Positions 1 to 29,205 of a stretch of DNA of 64,000 bases are shown here, one piece after another (the stretch's first letter is position 1; each line of letters opens with the position of its first letter). The stretch spans positions 1-64,000 of IMG/VR virus record IMGVR_UViG_3300028920_000032. One strand, given 5' to 3'. The stretch is from a virus. Made by a program: the position numbers and the translations under genes. The notes beneath the pieces were generated by a model, which was not told the DNA's origin, did no database searches, and saw nothing but the letters and a program-made list of their open reading frames with translations.

Positions 1-284
1 TCTAAAGCATTTCTAAAATCTGTATAATTAACTTCTCTATCAGTAGTGAAATTTCCAGCTAAATCATTTTGAAGATATTGGTTATTCTCTGCAGCTCTTT
101 CTGCAAAACAATTTTCTAAGTTAACAAAATCTGTTTGGTTTTGTGAAGAATCATGAGAAGTACAAAATTCAGGATCAACAAATGAATCGATTTTGTCACG
201 TATTTCTTTTACAATATTAAATTTAATTGCTTTTCTTCGACTTCTCCATTGAAAAACTCCTGGACTACTTGTATTTTTAGCCAT
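1..284 (-). CDS. partial ORF (runs off window start), distant paralogue of 296..760; fibre-associated protein
   Basis: ATG at 284 after GGAG SD; translates MAKNTSSPGVFQWRSRRKAIKFNIVKEIRDKIDSFVDPEFC..., sharing F.W...I..E(I/L)R..ID with the neighbouring ORF. Confidence 0.7.
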   Translation of the reverse strand, partial: MAKNTSSPGVFQWRSRRKAIKFNIVKEIRDKIDSFVDPEFCTSHDSSQNQTDFVNLENCFAERAAENNQYLQNDLAGNFTTDREVNYTDFRNAL

Positions 285-1462: not shown

Positions 1463-4400
1463 TTAAATTAGAATCCATATTCTCTTTGGTTTATTGTCAT
1501 ATGAAGATTCCAATACTTTACCTATAATTATGCCACGATCTTTTCTTTCTTCTTCTGTCGCTTTAGTTGCAAAACCATCATAATAAGAAACTAACATATC
1601 ACCAATTTCTAATGGTTCAGCAATCCAAACTTTTACTTTGCCAGACAGACCAATTGGTATTCTAGAATCTTTTATTCCTATTCCGCCAGAACCAAGACAA
1701 AATCCATATGTATCAGAGTAGACTCCTACTACTGCTTTGTCGGCTCTCTTCGAAGATAGCTCTATTCCTTGATCAGTCATTACATAAACATATCCAGGTT
1801 TATGGTCAGAGCTAGTTGGGGATATATCAAAACCCTCAGCCAAGTCATTCCATACCGCATTATAAATTCTATGTGCGGCGAATGCTCCTGCGACTCCAAC
1901 TCCATGTATTTTAGAATTTCCACTAGTTCCAGGTGTGGTAACATTGACACTTACTCCAGCATCTCTATCACTTGGTTCTAATATTTCACCTTTATGAGCA
2001 TTAGTTATAGTAATAATATTTGAATTTCTAGTTGCTCCAAAATCTGATAATGCATCTATTTCATCTTTAGTTTTTTCTGCTAGATTGATATTAGTTTCAT
2101 TTTCAATAATAGTTACTTGAATACCAGTTCCAACTGCTGTACCACCAGTACTTGGATTAATACCTTGTTGTGTGACATTGATTGTCCAAGCTAAACTTCC
2201 TCCAGTTGCATCCGTTACATCTGCAGGTGCCGCTGTTTCAGTATACAATGCCGCTCCAACTCTAGTTGCATTAAATTCATACATAGCATCTAATACATCT
2301 TTTGTTTTTTCTGCAACATTATCAGCAGTTTCATTTTCAATTATAACAACTTCTATACCAGATTTGTTTGCAACCTTTGGATCAGTTGAATCATCTACTC
2401 CTGGAGTTGTAACATTTGGTACTGCTACCCATGTTACATCTCCTGAATCAGGATTAGTCACATTTCCATTATAAATCATTGTAACTGTAAATACATCAGA
2501 TACATTACCAGAAGCAAAATCAGTAGAATAATTATCAATTGCTGTAGCTGTCTTAGCAGCCATATTAACTGCTGTTTCTGCATCAACTACTTCTACTCTT
2601 ATTCCATAAGCATCACTTATTTGTGGATCAGTATAAGTATATGATGAATCATCATACCAAACATAATATTTTATTTCTTGACCATTTGCATTGTTTGCAT
2701 AGAATACAAAATATTTACTAAATTGTTGTCCAGCAGCATTATCATCTGGTCTAGCATTAAATATTTCAACATTTCCTAAAATATTATACCATACATAATA
2801 TGTACCAGTCTTTGAGTTGAGCGTCCAATATTTGCCACTATGAGATTTGCTTGAATCAGCAGTACATGAAATTGTTGTCATTTCAACTTGTCCTGCAGTG
2901 CTTGGATCTCCTGGATCATATGATGGTGTTATTCCTTGTTGTGTAACATTAACACTTACTCCAGTTGTTTGATTTGTTGCGTCATCAATATGACCTTTGT
3001 AATTATTAGTAATAGTCACAACAGCTGAAAGGAAACTAGCTGTAAAATCAGCTAATGCTGTAATCGCTGTGGCTGTTTTGTTTGCCACATTAGTTGCTGA
3101 ATCAGTATAAGCTAAATCAACTTTTATACTAGTTCTTCCAGCAACATCTGGATCAACTGATTCATTTAAACCATTTGTAGTAACTGTTACAGAATCAACT
3201 GCTCCATCTCCAATAGAAGCATTTGTTACAGCTCCTTCTGTAATATTAGTTACTGTTATAACATCTGCTCCTGGTGCAGGAACTGAAAATTGTGGAGTTG
3301 CATTCAATATAGTAGCAGTCTGTGTAGCAACTTGACTTGCTGTCCAACCAGCAGTAATTTCAATTCTTATTCCAACTCTGTTTGGTAGCTGTGGGTCTGT
3401 ATAAGTTAATATAGAATCATCATACCATACATAATAATATCCTTCTGGTGCAGAAATTGTCCAATATTTTCCAAATGAATTAGTTGCATCTTTACAATCT
3501 ACTTGAGTTACCTCAGCCACTTCATCAACATGGTACCAAACATAGAATTCGTCATTTGGTGAATTCAAATACCAATATGTTTCAGAAAGTGCTCCGGCCG
3601 TACTTCCTGGACATGTAACTTCTGTTATTTCATATTGTCCGTCATCAATATAATACCATACATAATATTCTTCATTTACAGAACTTAAATTCCAATATTT
3701 ACCAGATAATGATCTAGCCGTGTCAGAAGGACATGAAATTTCAGCAATTTGTGCTACTCCATTTTGTGATTCGTTTGCATAATTTAGTGCATCATCTGTA
3801 TATTCAATTTTAGCATTAGTAAGGTCATCCTCCCAAGCTATATAATTTCCAGTTTTCATTTCTACTGTTGTGTCAACCTCTAGTGTTGTACATACTAGCT
3901 CAACAACATCTAAAGCAGAAATTTTTATATCATCACCTTGAATTATAAAGTTAGTTAATTCTGAAACTATTTCCCAAGTGTCAGATCCATTACCATTACC
4001 AATATAACCAGCTCTGTCGCCTGAATCATTTCTAAATTCAACATAACCATAACTCGCATCATCACCCTGTTGAACTGTTATTGCATGATTAACAACTAAA
4101 TTACCAGCTGTTAGCTCAGTTGTTCCTCTACCTATTAATATTCTATCATCAGCCGCATTAACAAATAACATATATTCTTCATTTTCTGATTCTATTCTAA
4201 AATCATAATCTAATCCATCTTCATTAAATATAGCAATTGTTGGTGTTAGTCGTAACCTTTCTGTGCCATCTGTTCTGTTTTGCGTTCCGTCGCCACTTCC
4301 ACCATCTGTACTTGATCCAGTAGAAAATGTTATTATTCCCGTTCCATTGGCTACTAAATTAAAATCTTGATCACTTTGCCAAGTACCAATATGAGTACCA

Positions 4401-7400
4401 TCAATACTGATATTGTTATTAGTTCCGTCTTTAATTATCCAAGCATCTTGTGATTCATCAAATCTAATTTCAGCATTAGTTTCAGTTCCTCTTTCTACTT
4501 CAAAATAACCATCATTAAATTCTGGTGGAGTTCCAGAAAATCCATAACGAACAGTTATATGATCATCAAATGTTGTCAATGTAGTAGTTGAATCAATTTC
4601 CATTACTGAAGCTTTTATTATTCCATTAATTTCTAAACAACCAGAACCAAATATTGCTAAATCACTACCTTGATGTCTAATAATAAATTTATCATCAAAA
4701 TCATCTGCAATCTCAACTATTAATGATGTATTACCAATGTCATCAACTTCAGTATATATAGTACCTTCATCTGATGCGTCAACTCCTGAAAATGTTATTT
4801 TATTAACTATAACATCACCAACATTATTATTATTAGATCTTAAGAAAGGATTCATTTTTCCTCTAAATATCTCAACTTCTTTTGATGTTATTGGTTCATC
4901 TCCAATTCTTATTAAACTATATAACGATTCAGCTTTTGCTGTACCATCTGGTCTTCCACCAATAAATGTCATAATACTTGGCTTAAAATCTACTAATGAG
5001 GCTGGGCTAAATGAAGCTTCATAAACAGTTTCATCAATATACATAGTTAATAAACCTTCATCAACATCCCAGTTGACTACTATTGTTTTTCTTTCATTTA
5101 GGTCGGTTAGCTTCTTTGTGACATCAGCTACTCCATAAGCTCCTGATTCTACTGATACTGTGTTTCCTGTATTATCTCTTAATAAGAACTTAAAATGATC
5201 GCTAGATGCTTCATAAAATAATTCATGAGTTACATATACTGTACCAGTATCATCAACTGCTCTACCTGCTACCAATGAATGATTGTTACTGTCATTATAT
5301 AAAAATTCAGGAGTAATTCTTAAGAATATATTTCCTTTTTTCTTCATAGACGTTGGATAATATAATAGACTTGTTTCATTAGCATCTATAGATGTTGGCC
5401 AATTGTTTGCTTCTATTTTTACATTATCAATTAAAAATTCATCAATTCTAGAGTCTTCATCACTATTCATTGATTTAATGTGCACATCAACATAACCTGT
5501 GTTATCAACTGTAAAACCAATAGCAAATCTTTTTATTCCATTAAAATTAATTTGTCTAATGTCAATATCTGTTAAGTTGTCATTTTCTGTTTCATGCGAA
5601 TATGTTCCATCTTCATTGAATTGTACTACTATGTCATCATCTAAAGCTGTACCAGTTAATTTCAATTCTATTGTTCCAATCTGTATAAATTGTACTCCGC
5701 TTATATAATGTTTTGAAGAAGAATTAGTTATAGTTGCCCTAGACCATATATCACCTTGTCCATATCCAACTGTAAATTCTCCAATATAATCATCTTCTGT
5801 TGAAAAAGCTTCTACTCTTACATCATCAATATAGAATTTAGATTCACTAGTTGGATTATGACTACCTGATTGACTACCAATAGAAATTTCAACTGGTGTT
5901 CCTAAGGCAGGCATTCCAGCTACTCCAGTTTGGTCAATTACTTCTACTCCATCAACTGCAATTTTATAACCACCATCTAGTGGGTGTATTGCATCAGCTA
6001 AATAAGCAATGTCAATATATTGTTCTACACCATAATTTATAACACTAGTAGCAGTAGTATCAGTTCCTGCAACACTATGTGAAGCTCTTAATTTGAATTT
6101 TCCATCGGCAGTATTGAGTTCTAATTCAACTATTACATTATTTACTCCACCTGGACCAAATTGACAAATTTCTATTCTCTTTGGATCAGATCCTCCGAGA
6201 ACAAAATTGCTATTAATTTTTATATAGAATCTTGCGTAAGTATAAGCATCACCTGAAATACCAGTTTTCTCTAAGTATAAGATAGGACCTGTTCCGTCAT
6301 ATTCAAATTCATAGCCATAATCACCATGCATTGCTGAACCAGCAGTTGCAGATATTGTTCCATCTGTTTGATCATTGCCACTAAACTGTGAAAGATCATT
6401 AGTTTCTGCATTACCTATAAATTCTCCAGTTTCATCAGCAGCTGCTGTATGATTAAATCTTACATGTAATGCATCACCAAATAAAGTCCTAGTTTCATAA
6501 GTTTCAGCAGTGAATTCGTCATAAGTTCCTGTAAAATCTCGGTACCAACCAATTGGTAATTCATTTTCTGAATTTACTAACCATCCTTCGCTATCTGTGT
6601 CTACTGCTCCAATTAATGTTAATTCATTTGTTATATATGAAGTACCTAATGCAAATGATAAAAAGTTCTTTTCTATAAAACTTCTAATATTGTCTGATTG
6701 ATTTAATTTAATTCCGTTTCCATCAAAAATACTATATGTTATTTCTTTTGAAGTATCATCTTGATTGACAAACATTATATTGCTACCTGGAACTAATCTC
6801 ATGTCATCAGTTCTGCTTTCTGGTGCATTAGTTGTAAATATACTCTCATTTGAAATGATGTCTTTTCCTTCTACCGTTTTAATTGAAAAATTAATTGGTG
6901 AATCTGTTCCAGCATTATAATCTTTCCATTTAATTACAAAATTACCATTGGGAAGTACTAGTGCTTGTAAATCTGTTGGTGTTTGAGATGATATAAGAGT
7001 ATCATGGCTTAATATTACTGTAGATAAATTAGAAGAATACATTGTGTAATTTAAATTATTAGAAGGATCTACAGTATAAAATATAGTGTATGTTTCATTA
7101 CCATTTTGATCTGTTGTTTCTGCAATTGCAACATAAGAAATATCATCTCCATCGCTTATTGCAGTTTTTGCATGTACATCAACCCCAGTTGTTATATTCA
7201 TTACTTTTGCATAGCCTTGATTTGCGATTGAATCGTGAAACGCAAAAGCAGCATAATCATTATCGTGTCCTCTACAAGCATACACATGATCAGCTGTATT
7301 AGAATCAATCGCATATTCTGAAGAAATTGCATGACCAGTAATTGCTATTGTTCTGAAGTAAGCTTTATTGTCTGAAGATTTAATATAAGTTATTATAACA

Positions 7401-10400
7401 TAAGATCCATATACTGCTAACCATCCTTCAAGTAGTGTATCAGAAGCAACAATCATTGTTGAGTCAGAGACAGCATATGTTGTGTAATTTACAAACTCTA
7501 CATAAACATTTCCATCGCGTTCTAATAAAACTATTACTAATTCATTAGTTGGGTCAGCTGTTGATATTGCCGGTTCGGCGTCCCATATTTTACTAACTAC
7601 TTGTCCAACAGAAGACCATTGGTGTGCTTCTCTTCTATCATACCAAGTATCAGAATCAAATTTTCCATAAGTTAATAGGTTAGTATGTTGATCTTCAATT
7701 GCAATTGCATGATTTTCTAATCCTTCGTAATAACGAGCATTAATTTTGTAATCTCTAAATGGTTCTACTCCATTATCAGAATATGGATGAGAATTATTAC
7801 ATTGTACTATTAATGTAGAATTTTTATCATCTAATCTTGGTACATTATAGTTTGTTTCTTTTATATCGATTATTGTTTTTGTACCAAATTCTTTGACAAT
7901 ATTAACTGGAATCAAATCTCTAGAAACTATTAATTTATCAACTAACATGCTGTATGTAGATGGTGTCCATGTTGACCATTCGTATCCAGAAATAGTTTGA
8001 GTCCAAGTAGATGTCCATCCACCACCCAAATTGAAATGAGTACTTAATATATTTCCTAAATGCCAATTGCTTGTTGTTATATCTGATCCTGCACTATCTT
8101 CAAATAAATTATTTTTTGGTGCATAAACTCTGTCTATATCTCTATCCCAAACAGTATATATTATTGTTTGTATTCTATTATAATCTCCTGCTCCATCACT
8201 TATGTCAACATAATCATATTTTGGATTATAAGTTTTACTTTGTTCTAATACAACTCCTAATTCATGCCATTGAGCATATTCAAAATTGTTGCTAGAATTA
8301 AAATATGGTCCAATTACTGATATTGTAGTTGTTAAACTGTTACTTATTATTAATTTAAAACAATAATTATCAGATGATAAATAATTTGTTCCATATGTTT
8401 TATTATCATATACTATTTGTATAAAATCAGCTCCATTCAAATTGAATGTACTTGTATCAGAATCATAATCTAAGCTATAACGTGAGTCAAATAAAATTCC
8501 AGATGTTTGATAAGAATCAGCTGGTTTAAAACGTAACCAATATGTAAAGTGATCAGAAACTAAATCACTTCTATATTCAATTCTTTGATCATCAAGTTTT
8601 AATATTGATTCTTCAGAAGAGTTCTCTTCATAGTTTTCAATACCTCTCTCAAATCTTTTCTCTATAAAAGCTCCGGCGTCATTTACTCTATCTACATATT
8701 TAAGAGCCAGTGAGTCAGCTGAATCACCTCTTGCTATTGATACAGAAGCTCCATTAGCATGTATATCTATTTCATCATTAGTTCCAAGTACTATAGTTGA
8801 ATCATTATTTACTATAGATCCTGTCCCAGCATTGTTTACTAAATAAAGCAATGATCTAGTTATTGTCACTATTGCATCACTATCAAACAATGTTTCATTT
8901 GCCGTTGGATCATATGGCAGTATAGAGTCAACAATTGAAATAGTTAGAGATGTTGAATATGGAGTAATTATTACTTTACGTCCACTTCCTAGTGTTGAAG
9001 TTTTTGCGTTAGTAATATTTGTGAATGTAAAAGTATTTGTTGCTGTCGTGTCATATGAATTTGGATTAAAATTTAATAATTGAGCATCATCACTTATATA
9101 TACATTATTAAAAGCTACTGATATTGCCCCATTAATATCATGAGTACCAGCATTACTTACTAATAAACCTTCTTGTTCAATAATAGAATTATCAACTCTT
9201 ACTATAATATTATCTAAAGCAACAGTAGTGTCTGTTATTATTTTTTTAAACTGACAATATTTTGCATTCAAATTATGATTGTTTGCTAATTTTAAATGAG
9301 TTGTAATTTTTATTCCTTGTAAATATACCTCACTACCAAGAGTTAATTGATCTATAATTGCAACATGTTCTGCAATTAATCGAATCCCAAATGTTTCGCT
9401 TATAGTTGCATTTGCTAATGTTGGAATAGTGAGATTAATATTTTTTATTATGACTATGTTTGGTCTAATTGCACTACATAATGTAAGAGCTTGTGCTAAA
9501 GTTTTTACTGGTGTTGATCTTGTTAAACCATCGCTAATGTCACTACCATTTACTGAGTCTAAGAAAATACATTCTGAATAATCTAAATTAGAATATTCTT
9601 GATTTCTTTTCCTATAATCATTTACTCCAACTGGATCTAATATTTTTACTAATTCATAGTCAGCATTTACTACTTCTTTTTTAGTTACTTCAATATCTTT
9701 TAATGGTGTCAAACCTCTTGTAGAAATTAATTCATTTTCTGATTTAAAATAATGAATATTACCATCTAAATATATTCTTCCTTTTTCGAATTCATCTGAG
9801 GAATAATATGGTGCTCTAGATATATTGTTTTGATTATAATCTTGAGAATTAACAAATATTGTATATAAAAAATTGTATTGATCTTGATCAAGTAAAGGTA
9901 AATTCACATATGGCAAATCTGGATCAGGTGCACCCTTTAATATATCAATTCTATTTCCTAAATCATTTATATTTTTATTAACTCTTACTAAGTCAATTCT
10001 TGGTAAAAAGAAAGAATAATCAGTTGTTATAGGATCGGTAGTATCTGTTGACCACAATGCTATGCCATAGTGCAATGCACCAATTCTTGCTAATGGTCTT
10101 GATAGTGATATTTCACTATTTGATAAGTTTTGTGGTTGACTTGCATGAAATTCATCACTTAATTCTGTTTGAGTTGTTGGTACTATAGTTCCCAAATCAA
10201 CTTTTTTTAAGACTTTTTCAGTTTTAATGTCAACAAAATATATATCTTCTGGAGTGATTGTATTAGGTGTATCTTTTACAACTATTCTTTTCCCTTCTAT
10301 TTCATATGTCCATTCTCCAGTTAGTGGTAAATTATCAGCTCCACCAACTTTAGCAGCGACTTTAGCAAGCATTTTCCACATCCAAAAATCTAGCCATATA

Positions 10401-13400
10401 GTATCACCAGTGTCTACTCTAGTTGTACCATTAGGGATATAAATTCTGAAGTCATGACTAGTTGGGTGATATGGTACTAAGAAATAATCTGCATTTTCCC
10501 ATGTAAACCCAAATGTTTGTGTTCCTTCTGTAACTAATGTTGTTGAACCTGGTATGGGTGTGTTTAGTATAATATCTAATCCATCTCTACTAAATAAATA
10601 AGTTCCAGATGAATCTTCTTCAATAAGTACTGATGAATCATCACCAGTTGTTGCTGAAGTAATTACTATATCACAATATTCAGCAGTTGCACCAATTGTT
10701 TGTAGTGAAGCTGTTCCACCTGTAAGATCTGTATTAATTGCTGATAATAAATCAGTCATAGTTTGTGCAGCTGAACCAGCAAAAGAAACATTATCAACAA
10801 CTGGTGTTCCACCAGCATCAAATGTTACTTTAAAAGTAAAAGTTGTTGAATCATTTGGTAATCCAGTTGCAGTAGATCCTGAAATAATTTGTCCTCTACC
10901 CTGTGAAAAACCTAATTCATTAGTAGAGTTTGTTTTTATTCTTAAACTTCCAGCAAGTATCTGATAACCTGTAGAAACTGCTGAATTAATAGATACATAT
11001 GTATTTCCGCCAAAACTAAAACTGCTTGAAGAAACTCTTCTTAGTTGATAACATTCAGCGCTATTCCAATCTAATAATTGTAAATTAGCTTCAGCATAAT
11101 CACCAATATCCATTTCTATTGTTCCGACACCAGTACCTAAAATGCTAGTTCCTTGTGTTGGGTTTAACAATTTAATTGCACAGTCTGTTTGTGTAGTTTC
11201 TTGAGTATTTGTGTGACCACTTCCTTCACCTGGATCAGCAGTCTTACTTTCAATTATTATTTTTTTAGTATTGTCTGAATAAGTGTCACCAAATTTTTCA
11301 TAATCAGTTATTGCTCTTGCTCTTATAACTGGTGTTAAGTCTACTTGTATACCAGAACCTTCTCTATATGCTGTTTTAAAACCATCTGCATTTATATCAT
11401 CACCATTGATCGCATCTACTACATCTTGTATTGTAGCTGCTGCTGATGCATCAAATACTATATTATATCCGCCAGAATCAGCATCTATGTCTCCATCATC
11501 ATAATCAACACCACCAACGTTAAATCCTTGAAGTATAATTCTAAATGATGAGTCACTATATAAATTAAATTGAAGTATACCTGACTTACTAGCTAATTGA
11601 CACCTTCCATCATCTAATTCTTCACTTACTTTTAAAATACATGGATCAGAATTTGCCAATGCTCCATTAGAAATTGTTGCATATAAAACATCTGCCGAAC
11701 TATCATAATAAGCACTATATGCATCTCTCTTAAAATATTTTTGTAATTTATTTAATGCATAGCTATAAAAACCACCATAAATAGTTGATGAGCTTCTAGT
11801 GCCACCTATGAAAATTCTATTATCAAATGCTTCAATATAATTTAATGTTGATATGTTGTCATCTATTTCTAAATGATCATTAGAATTTTCATAATTTGCT
11901 TCAACCCAACTAAATCTGGCAAATCTATCATCTCCTCCACCACCAATATCAGTATCATTATTTTGTGAATTACCAGTCCATATTTCTGGGCCATTTGCAT
12001 TATTTGTTATAAAAAGTTGGTATGTTTGTTCAGGATCTTCCCATCCATTATGTTTTACTATAGATTTTATATTATCAATTTGTGTCTTTTTATAAATTTC
12101 ATCTGCATACCAATCAAATGTTTGAGTACTATCATCATATAGTGCATATAATATAGGTGCATATATCCAATCAGTATATAAATTAGTAGTACTATCTCCA
12201 ACAAATATTAAATATTTGTTTGAAACCGATCCGCTTACATTAGCTTGCCAATCAATTGCATCATTAATTTGTGTAAACATTCGGTGAGTTAAATTAGTAA
12301 CCACTCCACCACTTTCACATTTTACTTCTGAAAAAACTGTTCCAGCCGCTAAGCCACTCCATACATCAGCAAAAAATATTCTATATGTGCTCATTATAAA
12401 TAAAAATCGTTTAGTATTAGCAACATCTTCATAAATAAAGAAATTATTAATTTGTTCACAGTTATTTAAGCTAGCATCAGTTAATTTCGTAAAAACTGTG
12501 TCTATATCTAAATCATCATTATATAAATTATTTGTGTCATCTGTAAAAAATAATTCACCTTCATTGTTTCCTATAATTAAATGTTCTTTTGAATTTGTTG
12601 TGAATGAATAGATTTTAGTAATATAAGCATCAGCTGTCCAACCTGAAGCATGTCCACTAAAATCTAATTGTATAACTCTGTCATGATGTGTTGACCATCT
12701 ATTATCACTTGTGTCAGATTTATAAGCATGTTCAGTATCTATATAATCTCTTATATCAGTTTCAGTGTCTGGAGTTATATATAATATATCATCACTATGT
12801 GAATAATAAGCTCTTTCTTTTTCTGAATCAGTATATATGGCAAATGTATTAATTTGTCTAGCTCTGGCAGTAATTGTATTACCAGTTCCTGCTACTGGTG
12901 AGGAGTGTGAAACGACTGGAGGAAAGCCAGCTGCTGGATATGCCGCACCAAATAAATTAGTTCCTGTTACTCCATCTCCTGTTTGTATAGAAGATTGTGG
13001 TCCATAAGAATCTGATACAAACTTTAAATCATTAGTTCCTGTAAATTCAAAATGAGCTTTACCTGATAATGCTGAATTAATTGCATTTACTACAGCAGCA
13101 TATGAAGTATCTGTAGAAGTCGTAAAATTAAATTCTTCTGCAGCTGCTCCATCTATTGTTAATTTAAAATAATAAGTACTTAATTGATTTAATCCTGAAT
13201 CATTATATGTAAATGGAATAGTTATTCCTAATTCTTGATATCCTTGAGTACTACTATTTGACATCACATATAATTCACAAGTATGATTATCATCTAATGT
13301 ATTATTTAATCCAACAGTAAAATTTCTAAAACCAGCATTAAACATTGCTTCAGTTAATTGTCGTCCTATTGTCTCAGCTTCAAAGTTAGATGTTGTAATT

Positions 13401-15034
13401 GAAGAACCATTAACTATTTCTTGATGATCTCCTGCTGAACTTGGATCTTGATATATAGGCCACTCACTGAATTCCCATCGAGTCTCTGCCCAAGTTGCGG
13501 CATCAACAGGAGTTTCAAAAGATGTACTAAGTGCTGTTTCTAAATAACCATTTGAAATATCAGTGTCATCAATTGCTATTTTTGAATAAGTACCACTAGA
13601 CTTTGAATATATTCTCATTTCCCAATTGCCACCATCATCAAATGTTCTAGTCCAAGCATAAACATCATTACTTGTAAATTCTGCATTTATCAAATCTCTT
13701 AGTTGATTCAATGTAGTAGTTCCAGTTACTGTAACTGTTATTATAACAGGAGTTCTATCTGGAGGATTTGTAGAATCGTTATTTAATATAATTCTAAAAT
13801 CATAATCATTTGCTGCTAAGCCTAAAGCAGCATCTGGATCTGCTACTGTTAAACCAAAGTCAATATATCCTCTAGTCTCTGGTGAATCAAATTCAATAAT
13901 TTTAAATGCTCCGCCAAATTGATCTGATTTTGCAATTTCAAATGAATAAGTTTGACTACCTAAAAAATCTCTATTGTCATATATAGGTAACAATATACTT
14001 AACGTAGTTTTGTGGTCATCAAAATATATTCTAGAAGTTTCATTATATTTTTTTAAACCGCCAATTACCCTTATAAAGTTAGTGTCGTTTTCTATTCTGT
14101 TAAAGTTAGTAGATTTTTGTTCTCTGAATACATCTGATTTTAGTTCAGCATGATATACTCCAGATTCTGCAAAAAAATCTGAAGCTAATAATTTATGACC
14201 AACTCTTCGTAAATTTTTAATTGTTTTAGTATCTTCACCAACTTCTAAAATTCCTAAATTGTTTGCTAATAATTGTACATATGAATCTGGATAGTGATTA
14301 TAACCTGGATATTCTACATCTTCACTAGTAAAATCAGTGGTTTCATCGTTTATGTCAAAAATAGAAGAAGAATATGGTACTACAAATTCATCACTTGAAT
14401 ATATTGGGAAATTATAAGAATCACTATCTGTATTAATTTGTCTGACGGTTATTATATATTCTTCATAATTAGCAGGTATTGAACTTTCGGAGACATCAGT
14501 ATAGATAGCTCTATAATATCCAGTATATGTTCCACTCGGATCATCTAATATAGGTGTAGTATCATAATTCCACGCATGTTCATCTGTCCATAAAGTAGTT
14601 CCATCATCTCTTTTAAAACCAATAATTTGTTTAAAATTACTAGTTATTGTTCCCTGTGTTTTGCTTAAAGCAATTCCTTTGCTTATTTTTAATGGTGTCA
14701 CGTCGATTACATTATAAAAATCTTCAGGATCTGTATAAGACTCTTCTGTACCTACTGTTAATTTCCAATCATCTTGAGTATTCTTTAATACAGCATTTAA
14801 ACCTTTATCAATATTTATTCCATTTATTGTATTGTTAACAACTTCATCATTAGATAAAAGGTTTATAATAGGTCTATTGTCATCCCAAGCACGTACTATA
14901 TCTTCATTTAAGTAGCCTTCAATACCGGGATCCCCATCAACATCTAATCCATAAGTATTAACATGATCAGTGCCTATATGTTCTGGGTGTGAATTCCCTA
15001 ATCGACCTGTACTCCATTTTTTCAAATCTGCCAT
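1463..15034 (-). CDS. giant (4523 aa) tail fibre/adhesin with LamG-like, beta-helix and propeller-like segments, nested repeats and a C-terminal intramolecular chaperone (Peptidase_G2-like)
   Basis: C-terminus DLAEGF...KPGYV...VVGVYSD...IPIGLSGKVKV...IGDMLVS..G.A...IIGKVLE is the typical IMC autocleavage domain; FLDSVNGSD..DGLT...PVKTLAQAL beta-helix cap; fibre motifs GYFEVERG and FNEDGLDYDFRIES; AGGAG SD. Confidence 0.85.
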   Translation of the reverse strand: MADLKKWSTGRLGNSHPEHIGTDHVNTYGLDVDGDPGIEGYLNEDIVRAWDDNRPIINLLSNDEVVNNTINGINIDKGLNAVLKNTQDDWKLTVGTEESYTDPEDFYNVIDVTPLKISKGIALSKTQGTITSNFKQIIGFKRDDGTTLWTDEHAWNYDTTPILDDPSGTYTGYYRAIYTDVSESSIPANYEEYIITVRQINTDSDSYNFPIYSSDEFVVPYSSSIFDINDETTDFTSEDVEYPGYNHYPDSYVQLLANNLGILEVGEDTKTIKNLRRVGHKLLASDFFAESGVYHAELKSDVFREQKSTNFNRIENDTNFIRVIGGLKKYNETSRIYFDDHKTTLSILLPIYDNRDFLGSQTYSFEIAKSDQFGGAFKIIEFDSPETRGYIDFGLTVADPDAALGLAANDYDFRIILNNDSTNPPDRTPVIITVTVTGTTTLNQLRDLINAEFTSNDVYAWTRTFDDGGNWEMRIYSKSSGTYSKIAIDDTDISNGYLETALSTSFETPVDAATWAETRWEFSEWPIYQDPSSAGDHQEIVNGSSITTSNFEAETIGRQLTEAMFNAGFRNFTVGLNNTLDDNHTCELYVMSNSSTQGYQELGITIPFTYNDSGLNQLSTYYFKLTIDGAAAEEFNFTTSTDTSYAAVVNAINSALSGKAHFEFTGTNDLKFVSDSYGPQSSIQTGDGVTGTNLFGAAYPAAGFPPVVSHSSPVAGTGNTITARARQINTFAIYTDSEKERAYYSHSDDILYITPDTETDIRDYIDTEHAYKSDTSDNRWSTHHDRVIQLDFSGHASGWTADAYITKIYSFTTNSKEHLIIGNNEGELFFTDDTNNLYNDDLDIDTVFTKLTDASLNNCEQINNFFIYEDVANTKRFLFIMSTYRIFFADVWSGLAAGTVFSEVKCESGGVVTNLTHRMFTQINDAIDWQANVSGSVSNKYLIFVGDSTTNLYTDWIYAPILYALYDDSTQTFDWYADEIYKKTQIDNIKSIVKHNGWEDPEQTYQLFITNNANGPEIWTGNSQNNDTDIGGGGDDRFARFSWVEANYENSNDHLEIDDNISTLNYIEAFDNRIFIGGTRSSSTIYGGFYSYALNKLQKYFKRDAYSAYYDSSADVLYATISNGALANSDPCILKVSEELDDGRCQLASKSGILQFNLYSDSSFRIILQGFNVGGVDYDDGDIDADSGGYNIVFDASAAATIQDVVDAINGDDINADGFKTAYREGSGIQVDLTPVIRARAITDYEKFGDTYSDNTKKIIIESKTADPGEGSGHTNTQETTQTDCAIKLLNPTQGTSILGTGVGTIEMDIGDYAEANLQLLDWNSAECYQLRRVSSSSFSFGGNTYVSINSAVSTGYQILAGSLRIKTNSTNELGFSQGRGQIISGSTATGLPNDSTTFTFKVTFDAGGTPVVDNVSFAGSAAQTMTDLLSAINTDLTGGTASLQTIGATAEYCDIVITSATTGDDSSVLIEEDSSGTYLFSRDGLDIILNTPIPGSTTLVTEGTQTFGFTWENADYFLVPYHPTSHDFRIYIPNGTTRVDTGDTIWLDFWMWKMLAKVAAKVGGADNLPLTGEWTYEIEGKRIVVKDTPNTITPEDIYFVDIKTEKVLKKVDLGTIVPTTQTELSDEFHASQPQNLSNSEISLSRPLARIGALHYGIALWSTDTTDPITTDYSFFLPRIDLVRVNKNINDLGNRIDILKGAPDPDLPYVNLPLLDQDQYNFLYTIFVNSQDYNQNNISRAPYYSSDEFEKGRIYLDGNIHYFKSENELISTRGLTPLKDIEVTKKEVVNADYELVKILDPVGVNDYRKRNQEYSNLDYSECIFLDSVNGSDISDGLTRSTPVKTLAQALTLCSAIRPNIVIIKNINLTIPTLANATISETFGIRLIAEHVAIIDQLTLGSEVYLQGIKITTHLKLANNHNLNAKYCQFKKIITDTTVALDNIIVRVDNSIIEQEGLLVSNAGTHDINGAISVAFNNVYISDDAQLLNFNPNSYDTTATNTFTFTNITNAKTSTLGSGRKVIITPYSTSLTISIVDSILPYDPTANETLFDSDAIVTITRSLLYLVNNAGTGSIVNNDSTIVLGTNDEIDIHANGASVSIARGDSADSLALKYVDRVNDAGAFIEKRFERGIENYEENSSEESILKLDDQRIEYRSDLVSDHFTYWLRFKPADSYQTSGILFDSRYSLDYDSDTSTFNLNGADFIQIVYDNKTYGTNYLSSDNYCFKLIISNSLTTTISVIGPYFNSSNNFEYAQWHELGVVLEQSKTYNPKYDYVDISDGAGDYNRIQTIIYTVWDRDIDRVYAPKNNLFEDSAGSDITTSNWHLGNILSTHFNLGGGWTSTWTQTISGYEWSTWTPSTYSMLVDKLIVSRDLIPVNIVKEFGTKTIIDIKETNYNVPRLDDKNSTLIVQCNNSHPYSDNGVEPFRDYKINARYYEGLENHAIAIEDQHTNLLTYGKFDSDTWYDRREAHQWSSVGQVVSKIWDAEPAISTADPTNELVIVLLERDGNVYVEFVNYTTYAVSDSTMIVASDTLLEGWLAVYGSYVIITYIKSSDNKAYFRTIAITGHAISSEYAIDSNTADHVYACRGHDNDYAAFAFHDSIANQGYAKVMNITTGVDVHAKTAISDGDDISYVAIAETTDQNGNETYTIFYTVDPSNNLNYTMYSSNLSTVILSHDTLISSQTPTDLQALVLPNGNFVIKWKDYNAGTDSPINFSIKTVEGKDIISNESIFTTNAPESRTDDMRLVPGSNIMFVNQDDTSKEITYSIFDGNGIKLNQSDNIRSFIEKNFLSFALGTSYITNELTLIGAVDTDSEGWLVNSENELPIGWYRDFTGTYDEFTAETYETRTLFGDALHVRFNHTAAADETGEFIGNAETNDLSQFSGNDQTDGTISATAGSAMHGDYGYEFEYDGTGPILYLEKTGISGDAYTYARFYIKINSNFVLGGSDPKRIEICQFGPGGVNNVIVELELNTADGKFKLRASHSVAGTDTTATSVINYGVEQYIDIAYLADAIHPLDGGYKIAVDGVEVIDQTGVAGMPALGTPVEISIGSQSGSHNPTSESKFYIDDVRVEAFSTEDDYIGEFTVGYGQGDIWSRATITNSSSKHYISGVQFIQIGTIELKLTGTALDDDIVVQFNEDGTYSHETENDNLTDIDIRQINFNGIKRFAIGFTVDNTGYVDVHIKSMNSDEDSRIDEFLIDNVKIEANNWPTSIDANETSLLYYPTSMKKKGNIFLRITPEFLYNDSNNHSLVAGRAVDDTGTVYVTHELFYEASSDHFKFLLRDNTGNTVSVESGAYGVADVTKKLTDLNERKTIVVNWDVDEGLLTMYIDETVYEASFSPASLVDFKPSIMTFIGGRPDGTAKAESLYSLIRIGDEPITSKEVEIFRGKMNPFLRSNNNNVGDVIVNKITFSGVDASDEGTIYTEVDDIGNTSLIVEIADDFDDKFIIRHQGSDLAIFGSGCLEINGIIKASVMEIDSTTTLTTFDDHITVRYGFSGTPPEFNDGYFEVERGTETNAEIRFDESQDAWIIKDGTNNNISIDGTHIGTWQSDQDFNLVANGTGIITFSTGSSTDGGSGDGTQNRTDGTERLRLTPTIAIFNEDGLDYDFRIESENEEYMLFVNAADDRILIGRGTTELTAGNLVVNHAITVQQGDDASYGYVEFRNDSGDRAGYIGNGNGSDTWEIVSELTNFIIQGDDIKISALDVVELVCTTLEVDTTVEMKTGNYIAWEDDLTNAKIEYTDDALNYANESQNGVAQIAEISCPSDTARSLSGKYWNLSSVNEEYYVWYYIDDGQYEITEVTCPGSTAGALSETYWYLNSPNDEFYVWYHVDEVAEVTQVDCKDATNSFGKYWTISAPEGYYYVWYDDSILTYTDPQLPNRVGIRIEITAGWTASQVATQTATILNATPQFSVPAPGADVITVTNITEGAVTNASIGDGAVDSVTVTTNGLNESVDPDVAGRTSIKVDLAYTDSATNVANKTATAITALADFTASFLSAVVTITNNYKGHIDDATNQTTGVSVNVTQQGITPSYDPGDPSTAGQVEMTTISCTADSSKSHSGKYWTLNSKTGTYYVWYNILGNVEIFNARPDDNAAGQQFSKYFVFYANNANGQEIKYYVWYDDSSYTYTDPQISDAYGIRVEVVDAETAVNMAAKTATAIDNYSTDFASGNVSDVFTVTMIYNGNVTNPDSGDVTWVAVPNVTTPGVDDSTDPKVANKSGIEVVIIENETADNVAEKTKDVLDAMYEFNATRVGAALYTETAAPADVTDATGGSLAWTINVTQQGINPSTGGTAVGTGIQVTIIENETNINLAEKTKDEIDALSDFGATRNSNIITITNAHKGEILEPSDRDAGVSVNVTTPGTSGNSKIHGVGVAGAFAAHRIYNAVWNDLAEGFDISPTSSDHKPGYVYVMTDQGIELSSKRADKAVVGVYSDTYGFCLGSGGIGIKDSRIPIGLSGKVKVWIAEPLEIGDMLVSYYDGFATKATEEERKDRGIIIGKVLESSYDNKPKRIWILI

Positions 15035-15158: not shown

Positions 15159-15668
15159 ATGAATGGCGTATATGTTATTAAAAATATTAAAGAAAACAAA
15201 TTGTATGTTGGATCTTCAATGTATCCAGATTATAGAATACATACTCACTTTAAACAATTGAATGAAAAAACACACGTTAATAAAGAACTTCAAAACGATT
15301 ATAATAGACTTGGAAAAACTAACTTTTCATTTGAAATAATTATTGATGATTTAGAATATTCTGAATTAAAATCTAAAGAACAAGAATATATTGATTCTCT
15401 TAATTCTATAAATGAAGGCTATAATCAAAATAAAGCTAAAGGTTGCAGATTATATAAAAAGAAAAATAGTGAAAATTTTAAAAATGTAAAAATTGATTTT
15501 GATTTACATCATAAAATTAAAGAGATATCATTGAAAACTGGAATTAGCGTTGGGAAACTCATCAGTATGGGTGCTATTAAAATAATTGAAGAATTTCGAA
15601 ATGGAGAATTTGATAAACTAATAACAGTACAAAAAAAGATACGTCGAGATGGTACTATTATTCGCTAG
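15159..15668 (+). CDS. GIY-YIG endonuclease with C-terminal ribbon-helix-helix-like domain
   Basis: GVYVI...LYVGSS...R...H and NEGYN motifs; KNVKIDFDLHHKIKEIS is RHH-like. Confidence 0.8.
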   Translation: MNGVYVIKNIKENKLYVGSSMYPDYRIHTHFKQLNEKTHVNKELQNDYNRLGKTNFSFEIIIDDLEYSELKSKEQEYIDSLNSINEGYNQNKAKGCRLYKKKNSENFKNVKIDFDLHHKIKEISLKTGISVGKLISMGAIKIIEEFRNGEFDKLITVQKKIRRDGTIIR

Positions 15669-23600: not shown

Positions 23601-24011
23601 ATTTGTATATCCACCATCAAGAGTTGGGCTGTTTGTAGATTCACAATCACCATATTCTACTTCTTCAATTCTGCGGCTTAATTCTCCACTTATTTCAGCT
23701 CTACCTCTACTATCATAATCATGATCATCAGATTCAACTCCAGTTACTACATCTCCACCACTAATTATCATTCCACCGATGCCATCATAATCGCCTATTG
23801 CTTTTGTTATATTTCCAGATAATATTATAGCAGAATCACCAGTAGCTTCATAAGAAAAAATTGGATGTTCATATATTCCTTTACCTGTTGTATATATTAT
23901 ACCACCAATTGTTGGATAAAATGTATGTTCTTCCCAGATACTAGATGCTGTACCAGAAAGTATAACTGGATTTTCTTTTAATTCATTATATTTATACCAT
24001 TTTTTAATCAT
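20682..24011 (-). CDS. virion protein with four carbohydrate-binding-module-like (galactose-binding fold) repeats
   Basis: four copies of EYGDCESTNSPTLD.GY...A.W.R....Y.G.YSW...D(M/L)HG...YID.(F/L)SI separated by G/S/T-rich spacers. Confidence 0.75.
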   Translation of the reverse strand: MIKKWYKYNELKENPVILSGTASSIWEEHTFYPTIGGIIYTTGKGIYEHPIFSYEATGDSAIILSGNITKAIGDYDGIGGMIISGGDVVTGVESDDHDYDSRGRAEISGELSRRIEEVEYGDCESTNSPTLDGGYTNLSGASWERTTDQVYNDSYSWVMTKISGAQSFVTLADSESTTDLHGIIPGKIYQIRVAIYTTVVTPSNCYFRIYEYYSSSWHATDLHPSASDTWQILSTDHTINASTTGFFIKLFTPITEAVGTKVYIDDFSISYIGEIELDLFATNNGQATVSGEVIANERSYTNDTISGGMVLSGGDIVTGVESDDHDYEGNGALISSGIVSEQIECITEVAVDTLVTSGDGLYEIEIEREGSYGAITSGGASLAAPEYIALATGFATTSGTSENQTEFTREVIGSTVVSGYAIHHMQTDDDDFYIPIELEQVTTTGLADLNFEIARDGSGSLTTSGTTGDGSDMFEINREIIPTTMLINGATEYECLCCFLYDSILPTIEEIEYGDCESTNSPTLDSGYSNLENATWERTTGQVYNGIYSWEFNVITSVNNAKIDLVDTKNESDMHGLETSCYYELNVALRTDEENFTELMFLEFQQYYDGAWHATENDRCRVNNPNSWETFTKIYYINPSTTGINISLEGYTSLSNKKLWIDSLSLIKMPLSGTIGDTLLDLTPDIILNTIITSGIIGQPEISNVIYSGTEHVEYGDCESTNSPTIDNGYSVLTGATWGRTSNDKHDGVYSWLLTKTTGAGGGYAYNAMSDTFNPSDMHGFIAGEEYYYSLWFKTDVDTLSNAKFQILEYSSEWTIPVARTVSTSDWTHFTGTFTIGSNTTGFSINVWMHTNELSGKKIYIDELTITNVNDIVFGESPLDLITDIIPETMLISGCSIHHMQTDDDDFYIPIVPASMTIDGNVDLDSFDIMRYNFIEHSDCESINSPTLDGGYSNAENATWTRSTDRVYEGNYSWELNKDSLPGAGSAIVYLTDNLNTSDMHGLEANTTYLLSVAMNSNASTPTNAKIYVLEYIEGWNIAATISSTIVNSWQYFSNIEFSIDAAATAISIQVYIATAEPLNTKLYIDKFSITSAAPKLIISGAADTEYET

Positions 24012-27000: not shown

Positions 27001-29205
27001 CATATAAAAACTATAATCATGAGCAAGTGTTAAGCTAGTAGAATCAGTTGGATCTGTAAAAGTTGCAAAATCTTGATAACCTTTAGTAGAAAAATTACCA
27101 TCTATGGGTGCTAAAGGTGACACACTTAAACTTGTAAATAAATCATCTACAATACCATTTGCCATATATACTTTAGATGACATACTTAAAGTGTCTGAAT
27201 ACACTCTTACTGTATATGTTTGTGGAGGTGGAAACAAAGTTGGGTCAGGATATATAGTAGCTGTTGCATCAATTGAATTTGCTACAAATTGAACATTGAT
27301 TGCATCTACTAAATCTTCAAAAGTTTGTGCATCTGTACCATTTACTGTTATTTTTGTACCTCGACCTTCATCAACTTTTAAATTAATTAAATTTGAATTT
27401 GTTAAATCACTTGGTGTACTTAAATCTATGCTTCCAGTAATAGTTATACCATGTGTTGGATTTCCAAATATTACAGGCATTGCTGAGTCTGACGTTCCAT
27501 TAAAATCTAAATCTTGTGTACCATTTATTGCAACAATAACTGCATCATCTGATGCTGGCATTAAATTTAATGGTATATAATCTCTTAATGTTACAAATAT
27601 AAATGGTAATAATATATCTACCCAATTAGGATCACCTGGATCTCCTTCAAGAGTTACTTCAGCAGCTTCGGGATTATAGTTTTCAAACTCTTCCTCCCAA
27701 GGTGTGGTGACAACATCAATAAAAGCTGATACATATATAGGTGTCAAGAATTTAACATATTTTAATATTGTGTCTGTATCTTTCGCTGTCAAATCTTGTT
27801 TGGTATAGAATTGTGTTAATCTAAAATTAATATAATTACTTTTAAAATAAGTAAATTTATCTTCATCAGTTATCTCAGATTTTTTAAATCCTAATATTTC
27901 CGACAAAGAATAAGTAGATTGTAAATCATCAAAATATCTCAGGTCTTTAGATTCTGTCCACAATTTTGGATCGATAGGTTGTTGTGCTCCAGAATTTGAC
28001 ATGTCACTTAGTTGATCACGATGTCTTGTTCTTGGATTTTGAGTAGTTAAATAATATAGAATATTAGTAGAATCAATAGCAGCAAATCCTTCTGGGTTTT
28101 GTGCATCCCTATCCCAATAATATTCTCTGACTTCTGCATCAAATCCCAATAATTTAAAAAATAATTGAAATGAATATTCTGTACCTTTCCTTTTATATAT
28201 TTCTGTAAGATTTTTAATTAATTCTCGGAATGAAATATTTTCAATTGAAAAGTCTTCTTTTTGATAACCTAATAAATGTGCCATATATTTTAAGAGGTTC
28301 TCATCAATTTCATCTATATTAGATAAAGTATTTAAATCTGTTATTTTTTGGTCAATTGTGTCTAATAATATTCCAAGACCATCAAAATATATTTTTAAAT
28401 TAGTTGTTGAACTAATAATTTCATTATCATAATTGGGTACATATGAATTTAACAAATTATGGAAAAAGAATTGTTCTTCATTAAAAAATTTGTAGCAATA
28501 ATATAACCATTTTAATAAGTAAATATATAATGTTCCTTCTGAAGAAGTATAAGTTCTATAATTGTCTTTATGTGGTGCAGCTATATTTCCTGGATATAAA
28601 CCAAGTACTGTTGAAACTTCTTCATTTAAAGCAGCAATAGATAATGTTGGTTCTAGACCCTGTTCAGTTATTTCAATTGTAAATCCAGTGGGTATAGAAC
28701 CATCACTGGCATCATCTACTTCACCATCAGAATCATTTGTAATTATGACTACTTCATCACTTACTGTTGCGCCTAAACCTGTTATAGCATCTACTGCAGA
28801 TTGCATTGCTGCAGCAACAGTATTTGCTGGATCATTGCTACTGATAGCAACTTCAATTGCAACGCGACCAACTGGAGAAGGATCTACACCAGCACCTGTA
28901 TTAAACCATATATAGTAATCAGTGATTGGTGTAGATAAATTAAAATATGAACCATTTAAAGAATGACCAACATCTCCTACACAAGTGATAGTAGTAATTT
29001 CAGCATTACCAATTACCTCATCTGGATCTTCTGCTAAATTATATACTGTATTTGCTTGAATTAGATCATCAAATTTAAATAATACATCATCTACTAATGT
29101 TCTTACTAAACTATCAAAATCTATATCAAACTCTACTAATAAATCTTGTAAAATAGTGTTAGAACTAAGAATGTTTATAAATTTTTGCAGATTTGATTTA
29201 ACCAT
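24004..29205 (-). CDS. baseplate wedge protein (gp7/tail protein I-like) with inserted domains and C-terminal propeller repeats
   Basis: IDEIDENLLKYMAHLLGY...RELIKNLTEIYKRKGTEYSFQLFFKLLG motif; downstream of the gp6-like gene. Confidence 0.8.
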   Translation of the reverse strand: MVKSNLQKFINILSSNTILQDLLVEFDIDFDSLVRTLVDDVLFKFDDLIQANTVYNLAEDPDEVIGNAEITTITCVGDVGHSLNGSYFNLSTPITDYYIWFNTGAGVDPSPVGRVAIEVAISSNDPANTVAAAMQSAVDAITGLGATVSDEVVIITNDSDGEVDDASDGSIPTGFTIEITEQGLEPTLSIAALNEEVSTVLGLYPGNIAAPHKDNYRTYTSSEGTLYIYLLKWLYYCYKFFNEEQFFFHNLLNSYVPNYDNEIISSTTNLKIYFDGLGILLDTIDQKITDLNTLSNIDEIDENLLKYMAHLLGYQKEDFSIENISFRELIKNLTEIYKRKGTEYSFQLFFKLLGFDAEVREYYWDRDAQNPEGFAAIDSTNILYYLTTQNPRTRHRDQLSDMSNSGAQQPIDPKLWTESKDLRYFDDLQSTYSLSEILGFKKSEITDEDKFTYFKSNYINFRLTQFYTKQDLTAKDTDTILKYVKFLTPIYVSAFIDVVTTPWEEEFENYNPEAAEVTLEGDPGDPNWVDILLPFIFVTLRDYIPLNLMPASDDAVIVAINGTQDLDFNGTSDSAMPVIFGNPTHGITITGSIDLSTPSDLTNSNLINLKVDEGRGTKITVNGTDAQTFEDLVDAINVQFVANSIDATATIYPDPTLFPPPQTYTVRVYSDTLSMSSKVYMANGIVDDLFTSLSVSPLAPIDGNFSTKGYQDFATFTDPTDSTSLTLAHDYSFYMNLDDTDFSEVDVSGETISSTTGQQIIDAINNHYDLTVNTNFAISTTCQYLDSARLTNDKIVIVYRDVSSGAGRIIIMNPNGTIYKSGINFSLVDVDLVTVVSSNNDTIKKFLVAYREKDINNVKWLIFNYDGDKLTTSNTIETDPGEGSSLTDIQSITLTNNRVVIIYDRSSDSYMKIFDLDGEVEVGTGYQWQTSSLTQFDVTTLSDDLVISAVGGSGGVLVYMKNDGTYLFGNMTNSTKGFDVSTTIVETNLVETSANEIYLAWRDTNDNKGYYEVWDASGNEIVSSSVFIEDINVLATIETTNENIILVYHKITDDEVCCQIRKTDGTLAKKEFLLYDSTTATEVSLEILSTSDMIITLIVPNKGVFLNYNHLGDVASLTTNSYLRIESIEAGATWDDNVENYAETTDLGHKFTIDGTEYEFDNYSNYYRTFEDKMFTRERNAFNTFFSITPNDDVIPIIEDTLNTIFTILVSVTNNPVESVDRANFYIQRNGYISRAQEGEDLTRNGHMSKYTRHQDFSEALRTDSDRVKKEINWPSYNNENTTDDDWSTWNMALDYFQPQVHYEEPYDAEGSAIVGGAALTSIEKHLVTGTLTTTGSSDVETEIVRSGYGSIYTTGVAQPDDVEMILLAGYSYSGAEEENSIYDNGSNTINTTIWRATDYNGIYVVGGESGRVASYDSNNWKKYDGTGSGTGPYSNSAAIGSGRIYPVIKYSDGISDFLIVAGYNSRLASYDGTNWKNYDGSGSGTGPYNSATLGSNIITVAIDYNNILIVAGYDGRVSSYDGTNWKYYDGSGTGTGPYNDGGATCSNDIITAITIYNNMIIFGTILGQIFSYDGTNWKNSDGTGSGTGPYGQNVLGTSERIWELIQFNTLLIVAGPYNRISSYDGTNWRLYNGSGTGTGIYNSSTNLLGAGVTIQAVEIYTNYLVFGSDNGRLASYDGANWKNYDGSGSGIGPFDNMTAIGNEPIYSLVAYEDDLIVAGGSGRVALWGTVDD
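24030..25030 (-). repeat. six roughly 60-aa repeats (GR.ASYDGTNWKNYDGSGSGTGPY), probable beta-propeller blades
   Basis: directly visible in the translation. Confidence 0.85.

Follow-up and report, generated by a model that had tools for sequence, protein, structure and literature searches.

A stretch of phage DNA of 64,000 nucleotides (nt), positions 1 to 64,000 of the IMG/VR record IMGVR_UViG_3300028920_000032 and hereafter called the window, encodes a giant protein of 4,523 amino acids (aa), P0001. Near its C-terminal end, half-copies of one small module follow each other in the order of balanced brackets. The question raised by this locus is whether these halves belong to complete domains that were inserted into one another. 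It had been proposed from the sequence alone (hereafter the original prediction) that the module was inserted time and again into one loop of its own kind, yielding a branched tree of domains and not a tandem array. Five lines of evidence support this proposal: a predicted structure of one nesting level, a 612-aa indel, bracket statistics in the protein family, paired indels, and covariation between the halves. Probably, aa 3760-4371 of P0001 form a self-contained ornament of five alpha/beta insertion domains of ~120 aa each, arranged as M1[ M2[M3] - linker - M4[M5] ], with copies located in the b3-b4 loop of others. The gene that carries this array is the following:

1463..15034, minus strand: giant open reading frame P0001 (4,523 aa), presumed tail or baseplate fibre, downstream of baseplate genes

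Half-modules in the giant protein

The array region was split by eye and the pieces were aligned. Profile hidden Markov models (HMMs) made for each half-type were then run against all stop-to-stop frames in the window. In aa 3762-4373 of P0001, the module is represented by five N-halves and five C-halves, and no more, with independent domain E-values of 1e-16 to 1e-33. Their order is N1 N2 N3 C3 C2, an 11-aa linker, and N4 N5 C5 C4 C1. The strand order of the complete module is b1-b2-b3 followed by b4-helix-b5-b6-b7. The N-half includes the three strands b1-b3 and terminates in YYVWY or FYVWY, while the C-half begins near a DP motif and contains the helix (b4-helix-b5-b6-b7). The half-specific HMMs thus bear out the balanced-bracket order of five N- and five C-halves given in the original prediction; its nucleotide positions were correct within a few bases, and all five N-halves possess one of the two terminal motifs it had named. 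The elements of the array, all on the minus strand, are listed below from the N-terminal side of the protein. Local confidence of the model is given as the predicted local distance difference test (pLDDT).

3644..3751, minus strand: N1, N-half of the outermost module, ending in YYVWY (aa 3762-3797; HMM, independent E-value 1e-20)
3521..3643, minus strand: N2, N-half of module 2 (aa 3798-3838; HMM; AlphaFold2 model residues 1-41, pLDDT 96-98)
3158..3520, minus strand: module 3, intact (N3, aa 3839-3873, and C3, aa 3874-3959), in the b3-b4 loop of module 2 (HMM; model residues 42-162)
2921..3157, minus strand: C2, C-half of module 2 (aa 3960-4038; HMM; model residues 163-241, predicted to pair with 1-41)
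2888..2920, minus strand: 11-aa linker between the two inner branches (aa 4039-4049; sequence reading)
2774..2887, minus strand: N4, N-half of module 4 (aa 4050-4087; HMM)
2387..2773, minus strand: module 5, intact (N5, aa 4088-4129, including an additional loop of 5 aa, and C5, aa 4130-4216), in module 4 (HMM)
2150..2386, minus strand: C4, C-half of module 4 (aa 4217-4295; HMM)
1916..2149, minus strand: C1, C-half of the outermost module, predicted to close the tree (aa 4296-4373; HMM; indel boundary; co-folding with N1)
28645..29007, minus strand: single intact module, N-half and C-half contiguous (aa ~67-187 of the 1,733-aa Tail_P2_I protein; HMM)

The last of these was the sole further module detected in the six-frame translation of the window. 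The original prediction had noted an intact copy in the gp7-like protein at ~28650-29005, and this is where it was found.

The longest direct DNA repeat in the array is 101 nt long and 75% identical, the copies being otherwise short or diverged. The same half order was found in three other assemblies, in proteins with 91%, 57%, and 53% identity to P0001. Searches of the array against Pfam and PHROGs gave nothing beyond a weak PHROGs link described below, and a blastn search of the array region against a phage collection gave none either. The 101-nt repeat links C1 (2027-2127) and C4 (2261-2361), which are sequence neighbours at different nesting levels. It may reflect local gene conversion.

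Pairing of the halves: structure, indels, and family

For structure prediction of the level N2[N3C3]C2, a 42-row alignment was made from nested relatives and its register was checked row by row. Two other alignments were set aside: one of 81 rows with single-module proteins, in which unrelated flanks were aligned onto the outer halves, and one of 51 rows, which contained register errors. With the 42-row alignment, AlphaFold2 produced a model with a mean pLDDT of 97.3 and a predicted template modelling score (pTM) of 0.88; all five models had a mean pLDDT of at least 97.0. Both copies in the model consist of three strands followed by a strand-helix-strand-strand-strand unit. Single-module viral proteins from the ESM-Atlas superpose on model residues 39-176, that is, on the inner copy. 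In a VIA-align search, ~40 solved chains placed one contiguous domain of 95-115 aa on a model range of ~1..241, with 82-99 residues aligned at 2.0-3.3 Å, and further chains matched model residues 40..160 only. The ranges expected for crossed pairing, 1-162 or 42-241, were not seen among the structure-search alignments. A compact target that spans the model from ~3 to ~235 with fewer than 100 aligned residues implies that residues 1-41 and 163-241 make up one domain around the inner residues 42-162. The model therefore supports a composition of N2[N3C3]C2 from two compact domains, the inner one at ~42-162 and the outer one formed by 1-41 plus 163-241. In this predicted structure, a complete copy lies between two distant halves that fold together, as expected of self-insertion. 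A Foldseek search of the model against the PDB yielded no match at E <= 0.001, and all usable matches came from VIA-align.

For the outermost pair, N1 (39 aa) and C1 (80 aa) were submitted to co-folding as two chains, using a 40-row alignment for each. The interaction prediction score from aligned errors (ipSAE) was 0.56 (runs: 0.57, 0.55, and 0.56), while the best of three controls scored 0.00. The partner pLDDT was at least 74 and the contacts were at least 98% alike between runs. The tool grades this result as 'weak support'. Among 80 solved complexes, 58 pass its mark, as do two of 110 mismatched pairs; these counts are only rough for the present case, in which own alignments were used. 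Passing scores of 0.60 or lower were obtained for only seven of the 80 solved complexes and for both passing mismatches. Co-folding thus adds mild support to a prior for the N1-C1 pair that was already high from the bracket logic and the indel described below. Closure of the outermost module is accordingly less direct than that of N2[N3C3]C2: it is suggested by the indel, the bracket order, and a co-folding pass of the 'weak support' grade.

The indel was revealed by comparison with the homologous protein P0005 (4,002 aa), which aligns to aa 3301-3759 (41% identity) and aa 4372-4523 (58% identity) of P0001, with nothing in between. The 612 aa absent from P0005 (aa 3760-4371 of P0001) have boundaries that coincide with the start of N1 and the end of C1. 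In this alignment the whole tree is one clean indel, whose presence or absence leaves the flanks unaffected, as expected if the chain returns to its starting point. Also, P0005, which is devoid of the distal tree, has one intact module at aa 1400-1523, upstream in the shaft, where P0001 has none. Judging from these sequences, the module seems to change its place among giant proteins that are homologous in other respects.

A profile made from three intact modules retrieved 2,823 representative proteins at E <= 1e-3, and each relative was written as a word of N and C. Balanced, non-crossing words were found in 107 of the 109 proteins with equal counts of N and C (at least two of each), versus 29.4 expected at random order. 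Among words containing NN, 33 of 59 were balanced (shuffles: mean 8, maximum 16). The junctions are flush, with median gaps of 5 aa between consecutive N-halves and 3 aa between consecutive C-halves. Comparison of nesting depth in homologues, suggested in the original prediction, revealed that nesting is habitual in this large family. The depths of balanced words among 249 proteins were as follows: one level (159 proteins); two (17); three (9); four (5); five, six, and seven (one each); and eight (two). Pure nests range from N2C2 to N8C8. Forked words like that of P0001 occur in five other lineages.

Close relatives differ by whole modules, of which both halves were gained or lost together. 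The protein P0165 (N4C4) differs from P0166 (N3C3, 69% identity) by N#3 and C#6, and from P0031 by N#1 and C#8; both of these are pairs of nested partners. In this test, each of the 16 N/C combinations was deleted and the best-scoring one was taken. Three of these four best choices led by margins of 16-24 points, and the fourth, C#6, by 89 points. The tree that distinguishes P0001 from P0005 is likewise present or absent as a whole.

In deep nests, the correlation between N-N and C-C distance matrices was higher for nested pairing than for same-order pairing: r = 0.74 vs 0.14 (P0042); 0.77 vs -0.16 (P0155); and 0.73 vs 0.03 (P0159). Inter-half covariation, which was learned exclusively on contiguous modules of other proteins, ranked the nested partner as the best C-half for 61 of 145 split halves, versus 30.9 expected (p = 2e-8). 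The top covarying pair was N column 35 with C column 30 (Y-T vs F-I/L/V). For P0001, a distance test averaged over orthologues ranked the nested pairing 1 of 120, a result driven by the similarities of N1 to N2 and C1 to C2. An origin of the two branches from a single block duplication, [2[3]] -> [4[5]], is unsupported: the closest pairs are N1-N2 and C1-C2.

Alternative readings of the array

Several observations weigh against the nested arrangement or limit its reach. The pairing in N2[N3C3]C2 was read from the first and last aligned residues together with the aligned length, and not from a contact map. Of the AlphaFold check put forward in the original prediction, the part concerning N2[N3C3]C2 gave the nested fold, while the model of the whole array (aa 3755-4381, 4-row alignment) reached a pLDDT of only 31.7 and a pTM of 0.18. 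This low confidence is due to the shallow alignment; the model speaks neither for nor against nesting and is not informative for N1-C1. The pairing of N1 with C1 and the two-branch arrangement thus appear in no model of the array. Within P0001 alone, coupling scores and an HMM-based mirror-distance test do not discriminate between partners. Approximately one-third of the words in the family are unbalanced, which could be explained by missed divergent halves, fragments, or true orphan halves. Finally, the identity of P0001 as a fibre, its oligomeric state, and its function are deduced solely from the gene neighbourhood.

Some of these points would fit an array that is nested only in part, with M2[M3] and M4[M5] being real two-level nests and N1 and C1, as orphan or degenerate halves, packing against other parts such as the shaft or the C-terminal domain. 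N1 and C1 are covered by no confident model, their co-folding pass is only 'weak', and unbalanced words do occur in the family. We consider this improbable, given that N1 and C1 have profile scores as good as those of the other halves, the indel in P0005 begins at N1 and ends at C1, and the co-folding controls scored 0.00. In addition, the halves most similar to N1 and C1 are N2 and C2, respectively, which is what a single duplicated module would give. It is distinctly improbable that the predicted pairs form between different chains of an oligomeric fibre, with the C-halves of each chain complemented by N-halves from a neighbouring one. Trimers are the usual state of phage fibres, and the long half-to-half separations could favour such domain swapping. 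Against it stand the fully confident monomer model with intramolecular pairing, the flush junctions of 3-5 aa, which fit a hairpin-like return of the same chain, and the occurrence of the same module at monomer-decorating positions in sheaths and flagellins.

A complete absence of nesting, with N- and C-halves being two separate small self-folding domains arranged in runs, is very improbable. In principle, separate tandem duplications could give runs of N followed by runs of C, but these would account neither for a balance far beyond chance (107 of 109 vs 29 expected) nor for the single domain formed by the outer halves in the AlphaFold2 model, the indels paired at mirrored positions, and the inter-half covariation. 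The N-half reaches a pLDDT of 96-98 only beside its partner, versus 33-41 for the chain-1 side in co-folding controls. As for an assembly or annotation artefact, the region is indeed repetitive at the protein level, but the identity between its DNA copies does not exceed 75% over 101 nt and the frame is open for 4,523 codons. Because these diverged copies occur in the same order in three independent assemblies (53-91% identity), misassembly offers no explanation, and the probability of an artefact is negligible.

In the nested arrangement, which we therefore retain, each split copy would fold from two stretches of chain located 121 to ~500 residues apart. The chain would enter and leave each copy at the same point, so that a surface loop of one copy could accommodate another whole copy and the host copy would remain undisturbed. 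For the same reason the entire tree could be located between the shaft of the fibre and its C-terminal domain and not separate them. The likely origin of such a tree would be duplication of a whole module followed by insertion at one permissive loop.

Fold of the module, genomic setting, and known systems

The best fold matches obtained with VIA-align were to the protruding insertion domain of myophage sheath proteins. The sheath of cyanophage A-1(L) (8kee, residues 91-186) matched with Z 9.7-9.8 and a root-mean-square deviation (rmsd) of 2.0-2.2 Å over 88-90 of ~95 residues. Other matches included the Milano sheath (Z 9.2), PhiTE (Z 8.8), and the P-SCSP1u nozzle (Z 8.8), as well as the sheaths of Sf14, Mu, XM1, and E217; the entry 8foy had Z 9.2. 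Next came the nozzle domain of T7-like gp12 (residues ~145-248), T4 gp11 (residues 80-189), flagellin D2, and FliD D2-D3. The sheath, T7 gp12, and T4 gp11 matches had Z 7.4-9.8 and rmsd 2.0-3.0 Å over 85-99 residues, where Z values below ~8 lie in the background range of the tool and those of 8-10 are modestly above it. Flagellin D2 matches were from P. aeruginosa, S. maltophilia, and V. cholerae. The flagellin entry 4nx9 (FliC) had Z 7.4-7.9, and FliD matches had Z 5-6.8. With overall Z values of 5-8, graded as 'middling' by the tool, the links to FliD and flagellin are weaker on structure alone. By its predicted structure, the module is of the sheath-protrusion / flagellin-D2 / FliD-D2-like fold, as most of the domain superposes on solved members.

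On the sequence level, the strongest profile matches were giant flagellins whose ends are Flagellin_N and Flagellin_C (P0006, 531 bits), and hook (FlgE-type) and FlgL-like proteins carry the module likewise. The nested proteins are devoid of Pfam annotation and occur in phage-like contexts, while in flagellins the copies are in tandem. In three giant flagellin/FlgL-like proteins of 1,500-1,800 aa with FG-GAP repeats (P0006, P0008, and P0164), 7-9 module copies are arranged strictly in tandem. A weak PHROGs sequence link leads to the sheath family phrog_165 (E 6e-4), and matches in BFVD were sheath and baseplate-J proteins. No Pfam model matched the module, and the family is defined by our own profile. 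The search of this profile against PDB sequences retrieved only antibody heavy-chain variable (VH) chains at E >= 0.003, judged to be due to chance or composition. Since sheaths, flagellins, and hook proteins all contain the module as one unbroken insert within a longer chain, it would be a natural insertion domain, of which self-insertion between b3 and b4 is a special case.

The window has a guanine-cytosine content of ~30%, and nearly all of its long open reading frames are on the minus strand. No family model in Pfam or PHROGs covers P0001, and the gene neighbourhood suggests that it is a tail or baseplate fibre. The relevant features are:

29208-33965, minus strand: gp6-like baseplate-wedge gene matching phrog_219, upstream of the giant gene and in the same orientation
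24004-29205, minus strand: 1,733-aa Tail_P2_I/gp7-like baseplate protein, upstream of the giant gene
20682-24011, minus strand: 1,109-aa protein containing a carbohydrate-binding domain, CBM_4_9 (E 1.5e-6), encoded upstream of the giant gene and next to the Tail_P2_I gene
1466..1915, minus strand: C-terminal domain of P0001 (aa 4374-4523), 58% conserved in the array-less P0005, candidate Peptidase_G2-like domain

The 1,733-aa protein matched PF09684 (Tail_P2_I) over aa 282-375 with E 5e-8 and 33.3 bits. This is above the curated cut-off of 20.6 and, by sequence, classifies it as a baseplate wedge protein of the P2 gpI / T4 gp7 type. Its C-terminal ~390 aa (~24007-25200, minus strand) contain at least seven repeats of the motif SYDG-NWK-YDGSGSGTGPY, which have a propeller-like look and no Pfam match. 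The protein with the CBM_4_9 domain is a candidate receptor-binding protein. A GIY-YIG homing-endonuclease-like gene (169 aa; PF01541, E 1e-9) is located at 15159-15668 on the plus strand, head-to-head with the start of the giant gene, and has counterparts at the equivalent place in relatives (at 4854-5330 in L001, and on the P0003 contig). Another small module, strand-strand-helix, that is also repeated and has an end motif resembling T..DL..AIN, was noticed in translations only. It occurs in the N-terminal third of the giant protein (~10800-13800, minus strand) and in the Tail_P2_I protein (~26900-27400, minus strand).

The C-terminal domain of P0001 gave no Pfam match at E <= 1, including PF11962, and a PDB sequence search returned nothing meaningful. 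The neighbours of these 150 aa in the ESM-Atlas, with scores of 0.96-0.97, are clusters in which 12-17% of the proteins possess PF11962, Peptidase_G2, which is an autocleaving intramolecular chaperone of phage spikes. As a lead only, aa 4374-4523 are possibly a chaperone of this kind. If the domain is cleaved off at maturation, the fibre would end distally in the nested tree. With low confidence, and from the gene neighbourhood, we suggest that the tree may provide the distal region of the fibre with exposed domains for decoration or adhesion, held in a compact and branched cluster. If the fibre is trimeric, the cluster would be present three times per fibre.

A broader proposal is made here with slightly more doubt than conviction. 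The module family may be a general self-nesting block of phage tail and baseplate proteins, building compact out-and-back trees of up to at least eight levels (versus six in Si3 of the cyanobacterial RNA polymerase, see below) and tandem arrays in flagellins. The choice between nest and tandem would then be a selected, context-dependent route to an exposed binding surface that neither lengthens nor interrupts the fibre. The findings add a populous family (2,823 representative clusters, nests of two to eight levels, forks) to the few documented recursive self-insertions, and they connect a module that had no annotation with protruding domains known from sheaths, T7 gp12, and T4 gp11 and with flagellar outer domains. 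Close relatives that differ by exactly one split module are natural experiments. The family is a good system for studying the folding of discontinuous domains, the origin of trees at the DNA level, and the reasons for nesting in phages as opposed to tandem arrangement in flagellins. When giant phage proteins are annotated, runs of half-domains should be treated as brackets.

In flagellin, FliD, and the T4 gp18 sheath protein, the chain runs outward and then back, with domains nested as D0>D1>D2>D3 (in part PMC9230969). The array of P0001 resembles these proteins in that its outer domains would be inserts in inner ones, but they employ different folds for D0 and D1, whereas one module is reused here at every level. 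Similarly, the domains of sheath protrusions, T7-like gp12, and T4 gp11 are contiguous inserts within a larger chain, but are present there as a single copy in a different host domain and not inserted into themselves.

The flagellin of Geovibrio thiophilus contains a FliD-D2-like domain, D4, with its duplicate, D5, inserted in a D4 loop (PMC11532411). Compared by description, it is an axial filament protein whose surface domain is inserted into itself, a feature shared with P0001. Only one level is described for it, in contrast to the three predicted levels with a fork in the putative phage tail protein P0001 and up to eight in its relatives; the flagellins that carry the present module are tandem, not nested. 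The Si3 insertion of the cyanobacterial RNA polymerase subunit beta' (RpoC2) displays recursive insertion of sandwich-barrel hybrid motifs (SBHM), bifurcating nodes, and a six-level nested architecture (PMC10895346, PMC13114784). Common to both systems are one domain type inserted into itself and discontinuous domains, together with the recursion and the fork that are predicted for P0001. Si3 has an unrelated fold and is a mobile part of an enzyme, while the module described here is an alpha/beta decoration domain on virion and flagellar surfaces, and pure nests among its relatives reach eight levels. The principle of self-insertion is therefore already known; new are this family, the phage-fibre setting, the fork, and the depth of nesting in relatives.

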